DNA of 49,223 bases, from sequence record NC_103567.1. The stretch is one strand, 5' to 3'. The stretch is from a phage. The first letter of the stretch is position 1. Each line of letters begins with the position of its first letter. The notes below the pieces were generated by a model, which worked only from the letters and a program-made list of their open reading frames with translations, did no database searches and was not told where the DNA came from. Shown in pieces: positions 3,972-49,105 of the stretch. Made by a program: the position numbers and the translations under genes.

Positions 3972-3991
3972 ATAGCACTTTTTGCTAAAAC
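3971..3991 (+). promoter_or_regulatory. 21-bp motif, class I
   Basis: AATAGCACTTTTTGCTAAAAC then inverted repeat GGCACA...TGTGCC enclosing TGATAAAGT. Confidence 0.6.
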
Positions 3992-28531: not shown

Positions 28532-28570
28532 ATGCCCTGGCTTAACGGTCGGGGCATTTTGTTTTCTTTT
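28532..28570 (+). terminator. terminator-like hairpin with long loop plus T-rich tail after the J-like gene
   Basis: ATGCCC...GGGCAT stem followed by TTTTGTTTTCTTTT. Confidence 0.45.
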
Positions 28571-28577
28571 GTTCTAC

Positions 28578-28675
28578 GGTGTTCACAACTTAATCCGGCG
28601 TAGAATTGAGAACGTTATGACAACAAAAAGAACAAATTAAATATCTATATAATACATACACTTAGAGTTTAATTA
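28578..28675 (+). repeat. copy B of the duplicated ~100-bp control-region element
   Basis: Aligns with 138-235 and is followed by similar TATATA-rich and GT-rich blocks. Confidence 0.7.
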
Positions 28676-28921
28676 TTATTATATATATCTATTTGTATCC
28701 TTCTTGTTTCCATTGTTCTCTATGGTTTGTAGTGGTTGTGTGTTTTGTGTTGGTTGATGGTTATATATCACATGGTATGTATTTATATATGGTATGCGGC
28801 GTAAATGCGTGAACAATGGAACACAAAAACAACAATTAGTAAAATCATAAACTTACGATGTGATTTTGTTGTCAATGCTAGTTGTAAACGTATTCAAAAC
28901 AAAAAGAACACTTAAATGGTA

Positions 28922-30033: not shown

Positions 30034-30053
30034 ATAGCACTTTTTGCTAAAAC
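30033..30053 (+). promoter_or_regulatory. 21-bp motif, class I
   Basis: AATAGCACTTTTTGCTAAAAC then 8-bp inverted repeat GATGCGTG...CACGCATC enclosing TGGTATACT. Confidence 0.6.
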
Positions 30054-31607: not shown

Positions 31608-33980
31608 TTACTTAGCAATCTGAATAAACATTGATTGCATTTCCTCGATCATCTTTTTCATTTCTGCTACTTCATTTTTTAGCTCATTGATTTCATCTTG
31701 TTGCTTCTGAATGGTTTCATTCTGCTTATCTGAATCATCAATCATTTCATTAATTGCGTTAACCAAAAGAGCAGTTACACCGCCATAGCTAACGCCTAAA
31801 ATTTCAGAATCAGATACCTTGTAAACCGCTTCCGGCAAAACAGTCTGAACATCTTGAGCTATTACGCCAGCTTCCTCAGAGTAGAAAGAATTTTCATCTT
31901 CTTCTAGGCTATTGCGCTTAAAGTAAGTGTATCCCTTAATTGATTTAACTTTATCTTTGGCGCTTTTAATCTCCTTTAGATTTGCCTTTAGTCGAATATC
32001 AGATGTATTAACCCATTGAACAGCGCTTGCATAACCAGCATCATTAAAAGTGTATGATGTACCTCTTACGTTTAGGTGAGCTTCGCAACCTCCAGCGCCA
32101 TATCTGGCAACATCTATACCAAAAACCCAATCATAACCCCACCTTACAACCTTAACAACGTTAACGGCTACATCATCGCCTGGAAGTTCAACAAGCATAC
32201 CAGCGGCGCGATCACGCCATGCAGTAAAAGCACCACCCTCAACATGCCCACCTATAAAGCAATTCGCACCACCCCTCCTAACACCTTCAACATAAGCAAA
32301 ACGTGCATCTTCTGGAGCAAATGATTGAATAGTTCTGTATGCAACATTGCCACTCTTTGTAAATGCAAACATCACTTGATTATCAGCAATAGCTTGAAGA
32401 ATGCCATCTCCATTTTGCCTAAATCCAGTATCAGTATCTCCAATTACTATAGAGTTACTACCAAGAGCATTACCAATCCCCCTACCGATTGTTATTGAGT
32501 TGTAATTCAGCGCGTTGCCACTTTCATCAAACTGATAATAGTTTGTGTCGCCACCTTCTCTAGTTACTTGAATAGTTGCCTTTGCAATCCCACCCTGAAT
32601 TTCGTTGTAAACCCTTGAATACGAAATCTGTACTCCTTCTGCATTTTTGTTTAACAAATAAAGTATGCCGGAGTTTGCAGAGTTTTTTTCTGTTAGGCTT
32701 ATTCCTCTAAAAACAGGAATGTCAGTTTCACCAATGCCAAAATTACTCCTTGCTTGCCCTATGCTTTGAGCGCCAGTGCCTCCTCGTTCGATGTGTAATG
32801 GTTTGATGTTTCCATAATCATCTTGAACACCCCACACACCATTGTTAGCTACAAGCATATTTAGTTTTCCATCAGGTGATTTTATGGAGTTAAAATCTCC
32901 TGGTGTTTCGCTAGTAATGCAAAAAACACCTTGCACACGAAAGTTTTTTCTTGCACCTTCAATATTTTCCGCACCAGTGCCGCCAGCACCAACAGAAAGA
33001 GCGGATGTGCTGTTATCGCTATTTCTTGCAACTCGCCACTCGCCGTTGTTTGCGATCCGTAATTCATAAGTCCATGCAGGGTTACGAAATGAGTTATAAT
33101 CACCTGGATTTTGCCCCTTAACTGAATTAACAGCCTCAACTTTCAGCGCCTCCCTTGCTAAATCTTTATTAGCAAGATCATTAAGATTCTGATCCTTATG
33201 CAGAAGGTTTTCAGGGTTAACTTGTTGTGCCCATTGGCGAGCTTCATCACGCGCAGTTTCAGCTCCAGCCTTTGCAGAGTCGGCGGCAATCTTTGATTGT
33301 TCAGCGGCAAGTTGTGATTCCTTTGCTGCATCGCGAGCATTAACAGCCTCGTTTTTAATTGATCCAATTTCAGCAACGGCGCTATCTTTTATTTGTTGCG
33401 TCTGCGTTTTTATTGCGTCAGTGTCTGCCTTAATCTGATTGGTTTCATAAACAGCAGCATCCTTAATCCGTTGAGTTTCTGCAATCGCAGTATCTTTAAT
33501 TTGCGTAGTCTCAGAAACAGCGGCATCCTTAATAGCTTGCGTGTCGTTTTTTAATTGCTCAGTTGCGGCGCGATCTGCATCCGTTTTTTGTGCGGAAGAC
33601 TCAGCGCGAGCAACAAGATCCTGTAATGTTTTAAGGTCAAAGTTTTTGAAGAATTCAATTGCTTCCTCAATAACCGTTTCTTTACTTTGGTAATATCTCA
33701 GCGTTTCCGCTACATCTTGCGCCATTCCATCGACAGTTAGCGAGTCATTCAACAGGATTACATAATTTCCGTTTGCTACTGGCTCGCCGTCAGTCTGGAT
33801 CGCTTTCATTTCCGTGTCGCTTACAATATCGCTGATAACCGCCAGCTTTAAAGGCGTGGTTAAAAAAACGATTGTTGCGCCAGTGCGAATAAGAGAAAGC
33901 GGCTCACGCCATTTTGTGCCAGTACCAGTGATAACGCCTTGTGCGTCCATTGCAGCCGTACCAGTGCGATATAAAGCCAT
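31608..33980 (-). CDS. tail fibre with C-terminal intramolecular chaperone (peptidase S74-like) domain
   Basis: 790 aa; internal ~11-aa repeats (IKDAAVSETTQIKDTAIAETQRIKDAAV...); C-terminal SDIRLKANLKEI...coiled coil resembles the auto-cleaving chaperone domain. Confidence 0.7.
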   Translation of the reverse strand: MALYRTGTAAMDAQGVITGTGTKWREPLSLIRTGATIVFLTTPLKLAVISDIVSDTEMKAIQTDGEPVANGNYVILLNDSLTVDGMAQDVAETLRYYQSKETVIEEAIEFFKNFDLKTLQDLVARAESSAQKTDADRAATEQLKNDTQAIKDAAVSETTQIKDTAIAETQRIKDAAVYETNQIKADTDAIKTQTQQIKDSAVAEIGSIKNEAVNARDAAKESQLAAEQSKIAADSAKAGAETARDEARQWAQQVNPENLLHKDQNLNDLANKDLAREALKVEAVNSVKGQNPGDYNSFRNPAWTYELRIANNGEWRVARNSDNSTSALSVGAGGTGAENIEGARKNFRVQGVFCITSETPGDFNSIKSPDGKLNMLVANNGVWGVQDDYGNIKPLHIERGGTGAQSIGQARSNFGIGETDIPVFRGISLTEKNSANSGILYLLNKNAEGVQISYSRVYNEIQGGIAKATIQVTREGGDTNYYQFDESGNALNYNSITIGRGIGNALGSNSIVIGDTDTGFRQNGDGILQAIADNQVMFAFTKSGNVAYRTIQSFAPEDARFAYVEGVRRGGANCFIGGHVEGGAFTAWRDRAAGMLVELPGDDVAVNVVKVVRWGYDWVFGIDVARYGAGGCEAHLNVRGTSYTFNDAGYASAVQWVNTSDIRLKANLKEIKSAKDKVKSIKGYTYFKRNSLEEDENSFYSEEAGVIAQDVQTVLPEAVYKVSDSEILGVSYGGVTALLVNAINEMIDDSDKQNETIQKQQDEINELKNEVAEMKKMIEEMQSMFIQIAK

Positions 33981-35745: not shown

Positions 35746-35767
35746 ATAGCACTTTTTGCTAAAAAAC
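35746..35767 (+). promoter_or_regulatory. 21-bp motif, class I variant
   Basis: TATAGCACTTTTTGCTAAAAAAC, then TGTGTATGAT -10-like element; helicase gene follows. Confidence 0.55.
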
Positions 35768-35823: not shown

Positions 35824-37797
35824 ATGATTCCTAACATTGAAAAGCAGATTGCAGATCTGGGAGAGGAAAGGATTAAGGCAATCCAGAAGCGTTTCACGGT
35901 TGGTGAGATTGTCCCGTATGAATACCAATGCGTTGCTTACGCTGAAATTGCAAAGCGCTTGAGTAAGTATGTTGATCCGTTTTTCGTTAAAGCGGCGGTG
36001 TCGGCAGGTAAAACAATCATCTTTGCTATGGTTGCGGCTCAGTGCAGGAAAATGGGATTGAAAGCGTTATTTCTGGCGCGTCAATCTGAAATTGTGGATC
36101 AGGATTCAAAAGAGATTAGCGCCTTTGGTGTTCCGAATTCCGTTTATTGCGCTGGCCTGAATACCAAAAGCGCTTATTTCCCGATTGTTGTAGGATCGGA
36201 AGGTACTGTAATTGGCGGATTGAATAAGGCGTTAGGTGATTACGTCCCACAGGTTTTAGGTATAGATGAATGTCATCAAGTCAACTGGAATGATATTGTT
36301 GAAGCCGAGGAAAACGGCGAAAGCATAGAGCAAATGATGACACCGAAAGGTGAACCAGTTGAAGGCAATCCGTTGCTGATTGGTTCAGGCCGCGCACAAT
36401 ACACCATTATCATTGCAGAAATGCGCCGCCGTTGTCTTGAGACTTACGGTCATCAGTTGCGTATATTTGGAATGACAGGATCGGAATATCGCGGAATTGA
36501 GCCGATACTTGTCGAAGATAAAAGAATTCCTGGGTTTTGGCGTGAGCAGATCACAAACATTGATACTGATTACCTGGTAAAATTTGGTTCAGTTGTTCCC
36601 ACTTATTTTGGCAATGTTGGTGATTTGGGTTACGACTTATCAGAATTTACGCCAGTGAATGAATTTGGCGTTGCTGATTATGACCAGAAGCAATTAAAGG
36701 CCATGAGTGACAAGATTCACCAATCAGGAACCATGACGCAGAAAATAATGCAGATGGTTCACGAGGTGATGAAAAACCGCTTGTGCGCTCTTGTTACTTG
36801 CGCTGACGAAAGGCACTGCAAAGAGGCAGCGGCGGCGCTTCCTCCTGGCACGAAATATCACATTATTACCGGAAAAACTGGAGAGAAACAGAGGCGCTTA
36901 TGGCTTGAGGATGCTTATGAAGGCAGGGTGAAATATATTTTTCAGGTTCAGGCGCTAACAACTGGCGTGAACGTGCCGCCGTGGGATACTTCTGTTATTT
37001 TGCGTAAGATCGGAAGTCTCACGCTATTAACTCAGCTTTTGGGGCGTGGTATGCGTCAATTAAAAACATACCATAAAGAAGTATTGGGGATGCACAAAAC
37101 GGATCACCTTGTTTTGGATTTTTCAGGCACGATGTTTGAAATGGGTAATTTGTATTTCGATCCGATGTTAGAGCAAGCGCAATTCCAGTTACGTAAATCA
37201 CAGGACAAAGATCCGAAATATTGCCCGATTTGCGGTACAGAAAATTCATTCTATGCTCGCCGTTGCATTAATGAGGATGAAAACGGAAATCGTTGTGAAC
37301 ATTTCTGGACGTTCCAGGAATGTGAGGATCAGATTGATGACCGCACAAAGAAAGTTATTGTAAAAGGTTGCGGCGCAAAAAATGACGTTGCGGCGCGTGT
37401 ATGCCGTTGCTGTAATGTTCAGTTACGCGATCCAAATGATAACTTATCCGGCAAGATGTACCGTAAAAACGATTGGTGCGACGTGTTAGATTTTAATGTG
37501 ACGCTGACAAAAAACCAGGCTGGCGTAATATTCTGCTACACGTTACGTGATAGTGGCGGCGTAGAATTCAGGGCATACGAAAAATATTTCCCTGAATCAG
37601 AACACAAGATATGTAAAACGCTTTGGACAAAGGCGGTTAGAACACATGTTATAGATCGCCAAGCCGCAAACTTTATGATCGCTTGCCGCAATGCAATTAA
37701 GATCATGAGTTATGCGGGGCAAATATTGCCGCCAAAACGTGTTACCCATCGCAAGAACACAAAGAAAGAAGATTTGATCGCACAGAAGGAGTTTTAA
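35824..37797 (+). CDS. superfamily-2 ATP-dependent helicase with C-terminal zinc-ribbon motifs
   Basis: 657 aa; Walker A VSAGKT, DExH-like LGIDECHQV; C-terminal CPICG...C..C and CGAKN...CRCC pairs. Confidence 0.8.
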   Translation: MIPNIEKQIADLGEERIKAIQKRFTVGEIVPYEYQCVAYAEIAKRLSKYVDPFFVKAAVSAGKTIIFAMVAAQCRKMGLKALFLARQSEIVDQDSKEISAFGVPNSVYCAGLNTKSAYFPIVVGSEGTVIGGLNKALGDYVPQVLGIDECHQVNWNDIVEAEENGESIEQMMTPKGEPVEGNPLLIGSGRAQYTIIIAEMRRRCLETYGHQLRIFGMTGSEYRGIEPILVEDKRIPGFWREQITNIDTDYLVKFGSVVPTYFGNVGDLGYDLSEFTPVNEFGVADYDQKQLKAMSDKIHQSGTMTQKIMQMVHEVMKNRLCALVTCADERHCKEAAAALPPGTKYHIITGKTGEKQRRLWLEDAYEGRVKYIFQVQALTTGVNVPPWDTSVILRKIGSLTLLTQLLGRGMRQLKTYHKEVLGMHKTDHLVLDFSGTMFEMGNLYFDPMLEQAQFQLRKSQDKDPKYCPICGTENSFYARRCINEDENGNRCEHFWTFQECEDQIDDRTKKVIVKGCGAKNDVAARVCRCCNVQLRDPNDNLSGKMYRKNDWCDVLDFNVTLTKNQAGVIFCYTLRDSGGVEFRAYEKYFPESEHKICKTLWTKAVRTHVIDRQAANFMIACRNAIKIMSYAGQILPPKRVTHRKNTKKEDLIAQKEF

Positions 37798-37799
37798 AA

Positions 37800-38207
37800 A
37801 TGGTTACTGATAAAGGCGATTATCTGGAGTATTACGACAAATCAGATCCAGATGACAGAAAAGAGGAAGCGCACCAGGTTGATTCTTATTCATGGTTAAC
37901 ATATGAGTTTCCAATGTGGCTTGTTTGGCACACTAAAAACGAAGGGAAGAAAACAATAGGCACAGCAGTAAAGGATCAGCAAGCAGGTGTAAAAAAAGGA
38001 GTAAGCGACATTCTAATCCTGACTGGTTTTATTGGCTGCAAATATGCATTCATTGCAATTGAGCTTAAACGAGCCAACAAGAAAGGAACTAAAGTAAGCC
38101 AGGAACAAAGGGAATTCTTGCGCCGCGTTAGGGAATGCGGAGGATTTGCCGCAGTATGCTATGGTGTAGATCAAGTAAAATTGGCTATCGCAGACGCTAC
38201 AAAATAG
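37800..38207 (+). CDS. VRR-NUC-like PD-(D/E)xK nuclease
   Basis: 135 aa; DILILTGF...IAIELKRAN fits a D...ExK core; immediately follows the helicase. Confidence 0.6.
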   Translation: MVTDKGDYLEYYDKSDPDDRKEEAHQVDSYSWLTYEFPMWLVWHTKNEGKKTIGTAVKDQQAGVKKGVSDILILTGFIGCKYAFIAIELKRANKKGTKVSQEQREFLRRVRECGGFAAVCYGVDQVKLAIADATK

Positions 38208-38223
38208 CACTTTTTGTTAAAAC
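38203..38223 (+). promoter_or_regulatory. 21-bp motif, class I
   Basis: AATAGCACTTTTTGTTAAAAC then GGCGC...GCGCC and CATAAT. Confidence 0.6.
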
Positions 38224-38278: not shown

Positions 38279-38557
38279 ATGAAAAAGATGTTATCAGTAG
38301 TTGCTTTATCACTTGCCATTGTTGGTTGCATGGATAAACCAAAAACATATATTTGCGGAAATGAAGCGTTTGAGGTTACAAGCGAATATATGAAAGTTGT
38401 GCAAGGTAAAAGCACAGGCGTTGTAATGGATAATATCAGCAAAAATCAATATAAGCTGTTTACGCCAATTGGAACGGCTTTTTACACTGTTAACGATAGC
38501 ACCATTGATATTAAAGTTGGCGTTTATCAGAACACTCTAACTTGCGAGGTAAAATAA
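38279..38557 (+). CDS. lipoprotein (possible superinfection-exclusion protein)
   Basis: ORF track 38135-38557; internal start gives MKKMLSVVALSLAIVGC with lipobox; GGAGAA RBS. Confidence 0.6.
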   Translation: MKKMLSVVALSLAIVGCMDKPKTYICGNEAFEVTSEYMKVVQGKSTGVVMDNISKNQYKLFTPIGTAFYTVNDSTIDIKVGVYQNTLTCEVK

Positions 38558-38558
38558 A

Positions 38559-39299
38559 ATGGCTAAGGATTTTCAGGACAAAGCAACCATTGATACTTTT
38601 GAGCCGGAAATGGATTTTCATGAACTGCAACACGGCAGATATTCAGATATTGCTTTACGTTCAGGCGGTCATTATCAGCCAGTTAGAGAAAACCCATTAT
38701 TTAAGGTTAGCGGCAACCGTTATGCAGGAAGTAAAACGCCGGACGTAGTGCGCGACTTGTGGGAAACTCCAGATGAAATTGTTGAATACCTTGCTGAACG
38801 TTACGGCAAATATGATCTTGACGCAGCAGCAACGGAAGATAATAAAAAATGCGATAAATTTTACAGCAAAGAAACAAACTGCTTAAAGCGTTGGTGGGGT
38901 AGCAATAAGCACGTTTGGTTAAATCCACCATACAGCAATCCAGATCCATTTATCAAAAAAGCAATTGAGCAGATGGAACACGGAAACCAGATTGATATTT
39001 TACTTCCGGCTGATAATTCAACTGCATGGTTTAGTGACGCACAAAAACATGCGGCAGAAATTATCTGGATTACTGGTGAAACCTGGAAGGATGAAGAAGG
39101 TCGCGAATATTCCAGAACTGGTCGAGTGGCGTTTATTTCTGGCATGACAGGTGAGCCAGTTAGCGGAAACAATAAAGGTAGTGTAATTTTTATCATGCGC
39201 CAATTGGAAGAAGGTGAGCAACAGCAAACGCACTATGTGAAGATTAGCGACATTTGCCCTTCCGTAAAAAATAAACGAGCCAAAGCGCGGAGTATTTAA
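38559..39299 (+). CDS. dam: DNA N6-adenine methyltransferase (phage Dam-like)
   Basis: 246 aa; VWLNPPYS carries the (D/N)PPY catalytic motif of N6-adenine methyltransferases. Confidence 0.8.
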   Translation: MAKDFQDKATIDTFEPEMDFHELQHGRYSDIALRSGGHYQPVRENPLFKVSGNRYAGSKTPDVVRDLWETPDEIVEYLAERYGKYDLDAAATEDNKKCDKFYSKETNCLKRWWGSNKHVWLNPPYSNPDPFIKKAIEQMEHGNQIDILLPADNSTAWFSDAQKHAAEIIWITGETWKDEEGREYSRTGRVAFISGMTGEPVSGNNKGSVIFIMRQLEEGEQQQTHYVKISDICPSVKNKRAKARSI

Positions 39300-39300
39300 A

Positions 39301-39531
39301 ATGAGCATTCGATTAGCCGATCACATGAAATGGGATTTATTTGTCGGTATGACAATTCGCTTACTTGATAAGCATGGTTATAACGATGATAAAATGGAGT
39401 TGATAAACTGCCTGGATATGACATTTGACGAAATCAAAGTTGCGCCTTTGTACATGTGGGAAAGAAAAATTGAGCACGACCTGATACAATACAAACGCAG
39501 AGAGGGCGCACGATTTTTCAATGTGAAATAG
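39301..39531 (+). CDS. hypothetical protein
   Basis: 76-aa ORF directly after dam. Confidence 0.55.
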   Translation: MSIRLADHMKWDLFVGMTIRLLDKHGYNDDKMELINCLDMTFDEIKVAPLYMWERKIEHDLIQYKRREGARFFNVK

Positions 39532-39547
39532 CACTTTTTGTTAAAAC
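39527..39547 (+). promoter_or_regulatory. 21-bp motif, class I
   Basis: AATAGCACTTTTTGTTAAAAC then CCCGC...GCGGG and TATTAT. Confidence 0.6.
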
Positions 39548-39602
39548 CCGCTACGGCGGGTTTTGTATTATGTGCTTAACGGAAAACAAGAGGATTTCAA
39601 AA

Positions 39603-39990: not shown

Positions 39991-40073
39991 GATACATTTC
40001 TGTTATTTTGTTGCCGCCTGTTATCGCTTGGGTTATTATGTACGCCGTTGTTATGAATTAAGAGGATGTTAAA

Positions 40074-41189
40074 ATGAGTTTAAAAAAGATTACCGACGAG
40101 CAATTGATCGCTGAACGTGAGGCGGGTTTAAAACTGCGTGAGATTGCGGAAAAATACGGAATGAGCTTGCGCCAGGTTGAGCACCGCCACAGCAAATTAG
40201 CAAAGCGTGGCGAGATCTCAACTATCGGATCACCTGGCTTTGCGGTAATTGGCGAGTCAAAGTTAGTTGATAAAAACGGCAATACTAAACTAACCTGGAT
40301 TAAGACGCACAAAGATAAAGACCAGTTAGAGGCAATAATGCAAGCGGCTATGGCTGCATTTTCTGACGAGTTGCCACGCCTGGAACCACAGCCGGAAAAG
40401 ATTACTGACTATTCGAAAACCCTTGCGCTATATCCGATCTTTGATATTCATATTGGTGCAATGGCTCATAAGCATGAAAGCGGAGAGAATTACGACACAG
40501 CAACGGCAGAAAAGATCATGAATGAATTCTTTGATTATGCCGTCGATAAAGCACCGAATAGCGAAAAGGCTGTATTGCTGATTGGTGGTGATATGATTCA
40601 CAGCGACGGCCTGGAGGCTGTAACACCTGCAAGCGGTCACGTTTTGGATCAGGATTCGCGATATGCGAAACTTGTTTATGTTGCCATTCGAGCCACGCGC
40701 AGAGCAGTAAGCAGAATGCTGGAAAAACATAAAGAGGTTGAATTGCAGATCATTGAAGGTAATCACGACCAATCAGGAATGATCTGGCTACGTGCTGCAA
40801 TGGCGGCGGCGTATGAGAATGAGCCACGCGTAAAGGTTGATGTTTCTCCGCGCGTCGTGCATCACACTCAATATGGTAAAACTTTCCTGGCTTATCATCA
40901 TGGTCACACTGTACGCAAGCCAGAAACGCTTTTAATGATGTGTGCAGCGGATTGGCGGGAAGATTTCGGAAACTCCAATTCAATGTATGCGCATGTAGGG
41001 CATTGGCATCACCAGACTGTTACAGAAACGAGCCTTGGCATTGTTGAGGTGCATAGCACTATGGCAGCAAAAGACGCTTACGCCGCGCGTGGTGGCTGGC
41101 GTTCACGTCGCAGGGCGGCGGTAATTATTTATGATAAGGAATATGGCGAAATAGGGCGGTTTATGTTTTACCCTGAAATGATTGCTTAA
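40074..41189 (+). CDS. HTH domain fused to a calcineurin-like metallophosphoesterase
   Basis: 371 aa; N-terminal LKLREIAEKYGMSLRQVEHRH; then DIH, GGDMIHSD, EGNHDQ, HHGH, GHWHH in the order of metallophosphoesterase motifs; AGAGGA RBS. Confidence 0.65.
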   Translation: MSLKKITDEQLIAEREAGLKLREIAEKYGMSLRQVEHRHSKLAKRGEISTIGSPGFAVIGESKLVDKNGNTKLTWIKTHKDKDQLEAIMQAAMAAFSDELPRLEPQPEKITDYSKTLALYPIFDIHIGAMAHKHESGENYDTATAEKIMNEFFDYAVDKAPNSEKAVLLIGGDMIHSDGLEAVTPASGHVLDQDSRYAKLVYVAIRATRRAVSRMLEKHKEVELQIIEGNHDQSGMIWLRAAMAAAYENEPRVKVDVSPRVVHHTQYGKTFLAYHHGHTVRKPETLLMMCAADWREDFGNSNSMYAHVGHWHHQTVTETSLGIVEVHSTMAAKDAYAARGGWRSRRRAAVIIYDKEYGEIGRFMFYPEMIA

Positions 41190-41207
41190 TTAAATTATCA
41201 AGAAAAA

Positions 41208-41237
41208 GGCTGGCTAAGTGCTGGCCTTTTTTTGTTT
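41208..41237 (+). terminator. terminator-like hairpin plus T-run before the lysis cassette
   Basis: AAGGC...GCCTT stem followed by T7. Confidence 0.45.
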
Positions 41238-42697: not shown

Positions 42698-42718
42698 GTT
42701 TTAACAAAAAGTGCTATT
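42698..42718 (-). promoter_or_regulatory. 21-bp motif, class I (reverse complement)
   Basis: GTTTTAACAAAAAGTGCTATT on the plus strand; an inverted repeat lies downstream in the direction of transcription. Confidence 0.6.
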
Positions 42719-44861: not shown

Positions 44862-44882
44862 CTTTTAGCAATTCGTGCTATT
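44862..44882 (-). promoter_or_regulatory. 21-bp motif, class II (reverse complement)
   Basis: CTTTTAGCAATTCGTGCTATT on the plus strand upstream of the 526-aa gene. Confidence 0.6.
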
Positions 44883-47905: not shown

Positions 47906-47926
47906 GCTTTTAACAAAAAGTGCTAT
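47906..47926 (-). promoter_or_regulatory. 21-bp motif, class I (reverse complement)
   Basis: CTTTTAACAAAAAGTGCTATT on the plus strand upstream of the HNH gene. Confidence 0.6.
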
Positions 47927-49084: not shown

Positions 49085-49105
49085 GTTTTAACAAAAAGTG
49101 CTATT
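49085..49105 (-). promoter_or_regulatory. 21-bp motif, class I (reverse complement)
   Basis: GTTTTAACAAAAAGTGCTATT on the plus strand; outermost leftward promoter candidate. Confidence 0.6.

Follow-up and report, generated by a model that had tools for sequence, protein, structure and literature searches.

The gene considered here closes a rightward block of DNA-metabolism genes in the window, by which we mean the whole stretch of phage DNA that was analysed, 49,223 nucleotides in length. Megablast with the gene and comparison with related annotated genomes identify the window as the genome of a T1-like siphovirus (Drexlerviridae, Tempevirinae, Tlsvirus). The open reading frame was confirmed exactly where the first-pass annotation had put it and consists of 371 codons and a stop (Table 1). 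Judging from its sequence, it is an intact and genuine gene in which a predicted DNA-binding domain, a helix-turn-helix (HTH), is joined to a predicted metal-dependent phosphoesterase of the metallophosphoesterase (MPE) superfamily. The gene had been described as lying next to Dam; it is near Dam but does not adjoin it, as three small ORFs intervene. Downstream of the gene come a terminator and then the holin (start 41301), endolysin and spanin genes. The gene thus does stand just before the lysis genes, with a strong terminator in between; the record of Citrobacter phage Stevie annotates the same feature as a terminator. The position upstream of holin-endolysin-spanin is conserved across the Drexlerviridae (PMC13164509) and looks like conserved synteny rather than a demonstrated functional link. 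Elsewhere in its genome the window phage carries PNK and dNMP kinase genes, and a near-identical annotated genome encodes RecE-like and Erf recombination proteins.

Table 1. Coordinates of the HTH-MPE gene, its parts and other features of the window, with one gene pair from another locus
Feature	Coordinates	Strand	Basis or remark
SF2 helicase (ResIII/Helicase_C)	35824-37797	+	
VRR-NUC nuclease	37800-38207	+	
Small ORF, putative lipoprotein, between VRR-NUC and Dam genes	38279-38557	+	
Dam	38559-39299	+	
Promoter-region palindrome copy ATAGCAC-N4-TGYTAAAA	39528..39546	+	1 of 20
Shine-Dalgarno AAGAGGA	40060..40066	+	ATG 7 nt downstream
CDS of HTH-metallophosphoesterase	40074..41189	+	371 aa, PHROG 704
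Tri-helical HTH, aa 8-45	40095..40208	+	sigma-70 region 4 / LuxR-GerE / Lrp-like kind; family scans, predicted structure
Conserved beta-hairpin, aa 56-80, and long helix, aa 80-99	40239..40370	+	alignment, predicted structure
Calcineurin-like MPE core, aa 114-365	40413..41168	+	predicted structure, fold searches, family Pfam scan
MPE motif I, D124-I-H126 (DIH, aa 124-126)	40443..40451	+	alignments
MPE motif II, GGDMIHSD, aa 171-178	40584..40607	+	G172, D173 invariant; H176, D178 at least 90%
Strongly conserved loop particular to the family, VTPxSGHxLDxDxRxxK, aa 183-199, after motif II and before motif III	40620..40670	+	low model confidence
MPE motif III, EGNHDQ, aa 228-233	40755..40772	+	N230, H231 invariant
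MPE motif IV, HHGH, aa 275-278	40896..40907	+	H276 invariant
MPE motif V, GHWHH, aa 309-313	40998..41012	+	H310 at least 90%; H312 invariant
Intrinsic terminator, between HTH-MPE gene and holin	41201..41233	+	14-bp stem and T-run
Palindrome copies (examples)	1622-1640, 3972-3990, 30034-30052, 35746-35764, 38204-38222, 39528-39546	+	
Palindrome copies (examples)	42699-42717, 44863-44881, 47908-47926, 49086-49104	-	
HAD-type 3'-phosphatase / dNMP-kinase-like pair, locus L003	L003 5223-6281		

The transcription unit containing the HTH-MPE gene is headed by one of 20 copies of a palindrome, ATAGCAC-N4-TGYTAAAA (TAGCA/TGCTA dyad), of which 0.41 copies would be expected by chance; a terminator-like hairpin (39542-39565) overlaps this copy. 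Most of the copies checked are co-oriented with the neighbouring genes and lie in intergenic promoter-like regions. The palindrome is common to other Drexlerviridae loci, is annotated merely as 'repeat_region' in the Stevie record, and looks like an operator or promoter element of T1-like phages. As a general target of the HTH it was rejected, though not rigorously, because it is absent within ~5 kb of the homologue in IMG/VR lambdoid-prophage loci and distant lineages, while the recognition helices of the T1-like proteins and of their 67-69%-identical relatives in our alignment of 51 homologues are very similar.

Several other features of the window may be recorded here. The small ORF separating the VRR-NUC gene from Dam follows closely on a copy of the promoter motif and starts MKKMLSVVALSLAIVGC, a lipobox-containing lipoprotein signal peptide; a Pfam scan gave it no match, and it may encode a superinfection-exclusion-type lipoprotein. 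Two paralogous AT-rich non-coding segments of ~330 nt each, with conserved blocks of ~65-70% identity, are found at the window start (100-470) and between the large tail-tip gene (ends 28517) and the RecE-like exonuclease gene (starts 28978), at 28540-28870; they could represent a duplicated regulatory, origin or pac-type region. Finally, three tandem 33-nt units, 66-76% identical, lie at 33430-33545 inside the minus-strand tail-fibre gene, which would therefore encode an 11-residue protein repeat.

A helix-turn-helix joined to a complete metallophosphoesterase

The domain assignments rest on family-level scans and structure prediction. Searched singly against Pfam, NCBIfam and PDB sequences, the window protein returned only sub-threshold HTH matches (HTH_23 E=0.005 and HTH_24 E=0.024 in Pfam, aa 14-46) and no Metallophos match, neither PF00149 nor PF12850. 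The picture is fuller for the family. An alignment of 51 homologues that share 34-82% identity with the query (A1) served as input to AlphaFold2. The resulting model is confident (pLDDT 83.6, pTM 0.72): helices 8-16, 21-28 and 32-44 come first, then a beta-hairpin with strands 56-65 and 71-80, then a long helix (82-97), and residues 114 to 365 form an alpha/beta core. The modelled core has the beta-sandwich MPE fold.

The N-terminal residues had been read as a helix-turn-helix from a string, LKLREIAEKYGMSLRQVEHRH, that corresponds to aa 19-39. The tri-helical fold is present in the model, with aa 32-44 as the putative recognition helix, and a Pfam scan of 121 family representatives matched HTH_1 in 30, HTH_8 in 18, HTH_50 in 16, Sigma70_r4_2 in 11 (best 1.5e-9) and GerE in 5 (best 2.4e-8). 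The HTH is still detectable (HTH_28, HTH_1) in a distant relative from a Rhodobacter Casjensviridae phage. Domain analysis therefore finds a fold of DNA-binding type at the N-terminus, the absence of which had been named as grounds for abandoning the two-domain reading. Residues S62, G69 and W75 of the beta-hairpin are invariant in A1; the hairpin and helix segment (aa 56-99) is a linker module or a possible wing.

All of the metallophosphoesterase strings singled out in the first-pass annotation are present and in superfamily order, DxH / GD / GNH[DE] / H / GHxH: D124xH126, G172D173, G229N230H231D232, H276 and G309H310xH312. They are not chance strings, because D124, H126, G172, D173, N230, H231, H276 and H312 are invariant across 121 representatives with only 29-57% identity to the query (alignment A4), and H176, D178, G229, D232, G277, G309 and H310 are at least 90% conserved. 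PF00149 (Metallophos) matches 28 of the 121 representatives (best 2.7e-5) and PF12850 (Metallophos_2) matches 16. The full ligand set of a binuclear metallophosphoesterase is present together with the catalytic histidine of motif III, and from this invariant set we predict that the enzyme is almost certainly active. The two-domain reading is thus borne out by alignments, family scans and the AlphaFold2 model.

Family, prevalence and gene neighbourhoods

How unusual is the fusion? The protein matches PHROG 704, 'DNA repair exonuclease', at E=5.6e-152 and almost end to end, with aa 4-370 aligned to positions 2-389 of the 390 in the profile. The second match, PHROG 284 'exonuclease' (E=8e-23), is a related family, and PHROG 836 'late transcriptional activator' matches weakly (E=0.0086). 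The gene is 100% identical to those of Salmonella phages phSE-2 (gp51), phSE-5 and vB_SeTS_UALMA_PCST1, and 99.4-99.7% identical to those of Stevie (gp37) and its relatives, by megablast; an identical protein is already present in GenBank/RefSeq. In length, HTH+MPE layout and genome position, phSE-2 gp51 and Stevie gp37 match the window protein, which is an ordinary member of PHROG 704, a family known as a 'putative phosphoesterase' in T1-like and Jersey-like phages and in many others. By tblastn, 2038 of 50,697 phage records carry homologues, 1941 of them covering at least 80% of the query, and these phages infect, among others, Escherichia, Klebsiella, Salmonella, Vibrio, Campylobacter, Flavobacterium and Rhodobacter. 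When 1.84 billion cluster representatives (clusters at 50% identity) were searched with a profile, 6331 clusters passed E<=1e-3, of which 2390 also passed E<=1e-30. Among the best 150 of the 6331, the best match starts within the first 45 profile positions in 133, with proteins of ~350-480 aa; roughly twelve are extended or divergent at the N-terminus, a few are fragments, and a ~385-aa layout is common to most of the best-scoring homologues. Within the Drexlerviridae, 508 of 522 genomes carry the gene as a persistent core gene, and all of its families are classed as persistent (PMC13164509). HTH+MPE is thus how members of PHROG 704 are normally built, and the very large size of this phage family and its shared layout show that the fusion was wrongly called unusual: the gene is already known, catalogued and annotated. 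Deposited copies are labelled 'DNA repair exonuclease', 'phosphoesterase' or 'hypothetical protein', and the first of these names is an annotation resting only on fold-level similarity. As an aside, T1-like genomes that are close over the gene carry the deposited names 'Streptococcus phage MBBL140' (96% protein identity) and also the name of a Pseudomonas phage, which probably reflects host mislabelling or laboratory contamination by a T1-like phage.

We clustered the neighbours of the gene in 85 loci from 16 lineages, drawn from 80 IMG/VR loci together with phage loci. The clustering revealed no universally conserved partner gene in this set; it recovered only the T1-like synteny and a recurrent, non-universal adjacency to PNK/dNMP-kinase genes. 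The adjacency is seen in lineages that are unrelated to one another: genes for a HAD-type polynucleotide 3'-phosphatase and a dNMP-kinase-like P-loop protein lie directly downstream of the homologue in Klebsiella T1-like phages (e.g. L045, L057) and in Yersinia phage vB_YenM_27, and one ORF further downstream in the IMG/VR locus L067, while in L065 a PNK-like ORF lies directly upstream. Likewise, in Drexlerviridae that lack the SH3 gene, PNK and dNMP kinase are the commonest genes after the 'exonuclease', and the kinases have been interpreted as nucleotide-supply genes (PMC13164509). The trio of HTH-MPE, 3'-phosphatase and dNMP-kinase-like genes may serve nucleic-acid end-processing or nucleotide salvage.

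A different neighbourhood is found in temperate elements. Among 5426 complete E. coli genomes, 35 carry a homologue of 65-68% identity inside a lambdoid prophage, where it is flanked by an O-like initiator (with an Ant-like gene) and a DnaB-type helicase; NinB, Erf and SSB are close by. In other lineages the gene adjoins a Holliday-junction resolvase and a PNK-like ORF; in further lineages it adjoins DNA polymerase I, primase-helicase or terminase genes, identities that were read from the sequences by eye. In several unrelated phages the homologue is close to lysis genes. We also note that the copy in E. coli UMNK88 (L088, chromosome 1615160-1630278) belongs to a compact element adjoining ogt/fnr, with the order Erf-SSB ... 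CI-like repressor, O-like initiator, Ant, HTH-MPE, DnaB, NinB, integrase. Because its integrase is unusually close to the replication module, this element is possibly a satellite, or else a prophage that is small or degraded.

Comparison with known metallophosphoesterases

The predicted fold is clearly that of a metallophosphoesterase. In fold searches the nearest neighbours of the catalytic domain are Mre11/SbcD, PolD-DP1 and the MJ0936/YfcE-type phosphodiesterases, and the PPP protein phosphatases are far away. Profile and structure searches, which had been suggested as a way to tell the subfamilies apart, thus set the modelled domain apart from the protein phosphatases and place it nearest the nuclease/phosphodiesterase branch, but within that branch the fold scores fail to distinguish nucleases from small phosphodiesterases.

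Strict membership in the Mre11/SbcD family is ruled out by the sequence profile, the missing capping domain and the missing Rad50 partner. Pfam and NCBIfam scans contain no Mre11/SbcD-type match apart from TIGR00024 'SbcD_rel_arch', whose score of 12.5 bits (E=0.087) falls well short of the cutoff of 115. The A1 profile finds Mre11/SbcD in the PDB only at E 0.9-2.4, and hhalign of the family profile with E. coli SbcD is uninformative (probability 0.4%). The MPE core reaches residue 365 of 371, and no capping domain follows it. Neither the near-identical annotated genome nor the surroundings of the gene in the 16 lineages contain a Rad50/SbcC SMC-like ATPase; the P-loop protein near the gene is a DUF3987 protein and not Rad50. 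In place of these features, which characterize Mre11/SbcD enzymes (phage T4 gp47 and the SbcD-like protein of T5 among them), the window protein has its N-terminal HTH and hairpin.

The other relatives differ as well. The PolD small subunit DP1, considered together with the B-subunits of eukaryotic replicative polymerases, contains an OB fold and partners the catalytic subunit DP2, and the annotated gene lists examined for the window phage contain no DNA polymerase gene. The Pseudomonas putida MPE, PdeM (TIGR04123), is a ligase/Lhr-associated, stand-alone, Mn-dependent DNA endonuclease; it has no HTH and a different gene neighbourhood, and the window protein scores 18.2 bits against the curated NCBIfam cutoff of 150. 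MJ0936 and YfcE (COG0622) are single-domain proteins of ~165-185 aa with no DNA-binding domain, whereas the window protein is twice as long and has family-specific inserts. Finally, neither the PPP signatures GDxHG / GDxVDRG / GNHE nor a close PPP fold, as in lambda PPase/NinI, are found in the window protein.

Candidate functions

What does the HTH-metallophosphoesterase do? The full-text literature holds no biochemical or genetic data that we could find on any member of the family, and the mentions found were confined to genome announcements and one synteny analysis (PMC13164509). We infer its DNA substrate, nuclease chemistry, DNA binding and biological role as follows. With a probability that we put at roughly one half, it is a Rad50-independent, HTH-tethered, binuclear-metal (Mn-type) nuclease/phosphodiesterase that acts on DNA in phage replication/recombination. 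This reading is supported by the fold neighbours, the intact GDxxH and GNHD site, the DNA-binding domain, and the replication/recombination neighbourhoods of the gene in virulent and temperate phages alike. The matches to PHROG 704 and PHROG 284 and the core-gene status within the Drexlerviridae (PMC13164509) count in its favour too. The N-terminal sigma-r4/LuxR-like HTH (aa 8-45), perhaps helped by the beta-hairpin, would hold the enzyme on duplex DNA. The metal site would be built from D124/H126 (motif I), D173 (II), N230 (III), H276 (IV) and H310/H312 (V), with H231 as the transition-state or leaving-group histidine. Hydrolysis of DNA phosphodiesters would proceed in the style of Mre11/SbcD, by 3'-5' exonuclease and/or endonuclease action on ends, hairpins or single-strand regions. 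The enzyme would work alone, without a Rad50/SbcC-type ATPase, in the processing of ends or intermediates within the phage replication/recombination programme. Counting against a nuclease are the sequence profiles, the lack of a capping domain and of a Rad50-like partner, and the presence already of RecE-like and Erf proteins, which makes the need for a further nuclease less obvious.

Two narrower roles were considered and set aside. Host-DNA degradation, by analogy with T4 gp46/47, is weakened as a general role by the occurrence of the gene in the replication modules of temperate lambdoid prophages. A small-terminase-like role, prompted by the HTH, fits poorly with the near-identical annotated genome, which has separate TerS and TerL genes.

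The recurrent PNK adjacency brings up the best of the competing explanations, which we nevertheless consider improbable. Bacterial Pnkp contains a calcineurin-type phosphatase module. By analogy, the HTH-MPE protein might be an end-healing phosphoesterase that removes 2',3'-cyclic/3'-phosphate or other blocked ends from DNA or RNA, together with the phage HAD-type polynucleotide 3'-phosphatase and P-loop kinase. The 3'-phosphatase and kinase genes downstream of the homologue in many relatives, the upstream PNK-like ORF of L065, the gene order of the SH3-less Drexlerviridae and the PNK and dNMP kinase genes elsewhere in the window phage are all consistent with this. However, the adjacency is not universal, being missing in the window and in the prophage lineage; there is no associated ligase gene; the published reading of the kinases is nucleotide supply (PMC13164509); and the fold neighbours are nucleases and phosphodiesterases rather than lambda-phosphatase-like enzymes.

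A small-molecule nucleotide phosphodiesterase with a counter-defence or metabolic role is less probable still, with cyclic oligonucleotides, cyclic NMPs, Ap4A and NAD-derived signals as candidate substrates. The retention of the HTH in most relatives and the conserved hairpin would be hard to explain in such an enzyme, and PADLOC anti-phage defence models gave 0 families at E<=1. The calcineurin-like effectors of the m6dAMP-sensing defence literature are host-encoded and distinct from the window protein. Anti-defence genes are usually accessory. The HTH-MPE gene, by contrast, lies in the replication modules of virulent and temperate phages and not in variable anti-defence islands, and is a persistent core gene (PMC13164509).

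The HTH itself, of sigma-r4/LuxR type, and the weak PHROG 836 match could suggest a transcription factor for late or lysis genes in which the MPE domain is a sensor or accessory, as could the conserved place upstream of the lysis cassette in the Drexlerviridae (PMC13164509) and the vicinity of lysis genes in unrelated phages. We regard this as very unlikely: the fully invariant catalytic site argues for an enzyme, the gene and the lysis cassette have a strong terminator between them, prophage relatives carry the gene in the replication module, far from lysis genes, and the Drexlerviridae promoter palindrome is absent from non-Drexlerviridae homologue loci. Slightest of all is the chance of a DNA-tethered Ser/Thr/Tyr protein phosphatase like lambda NinI/PPase, which shares the superfamily, and lambdoid phages do carry an MPE-type protein phosphatase, but against which both the motif signatures and the fold ranking speak. 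The first-pass annotation had left nuclease, signalling-nucleotide phosphodiesterase and protein phosphatase side by side as functions of a DNA-targeted phosphoesterase; a DNA-directed phosphoesterase is the best supported, the nuclease option is favoured among the three, and the phosphatase option is disfavoured.

Beyond a DNA-directed nuclease/phosphodiesterase, we tentatively suggest, as an idea less likely than not to hold, that the family forms a distinct class of Rad50-independent nucleases in which a sigma-r4/LuxR-like HTH replaces the Rad50 clamp for DNA targeting, and which carries out an essential, conserved step of replication/recombination. Candidate steps would be the processing of replication intermediates or concatemer junctions and the opening of hairpins, in T1-like virulent phages and lambdoid prophages. 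If true, this would assign a role to a core gene that ranks among the most widespread uncharacterised ones in the Drexlerviridae, a persistent gene that occurs in ~4% of all phage genomes deposited. T1-like phages often contaminate laboratories and are also therapy candidates. Proof for or against a stand-alone, HTH-guided nuclease would confirm or correct thousands of annotations, and could clarify how replication and recombination intermediates are processed in phages without a polymerase and a Rad50 of their own.
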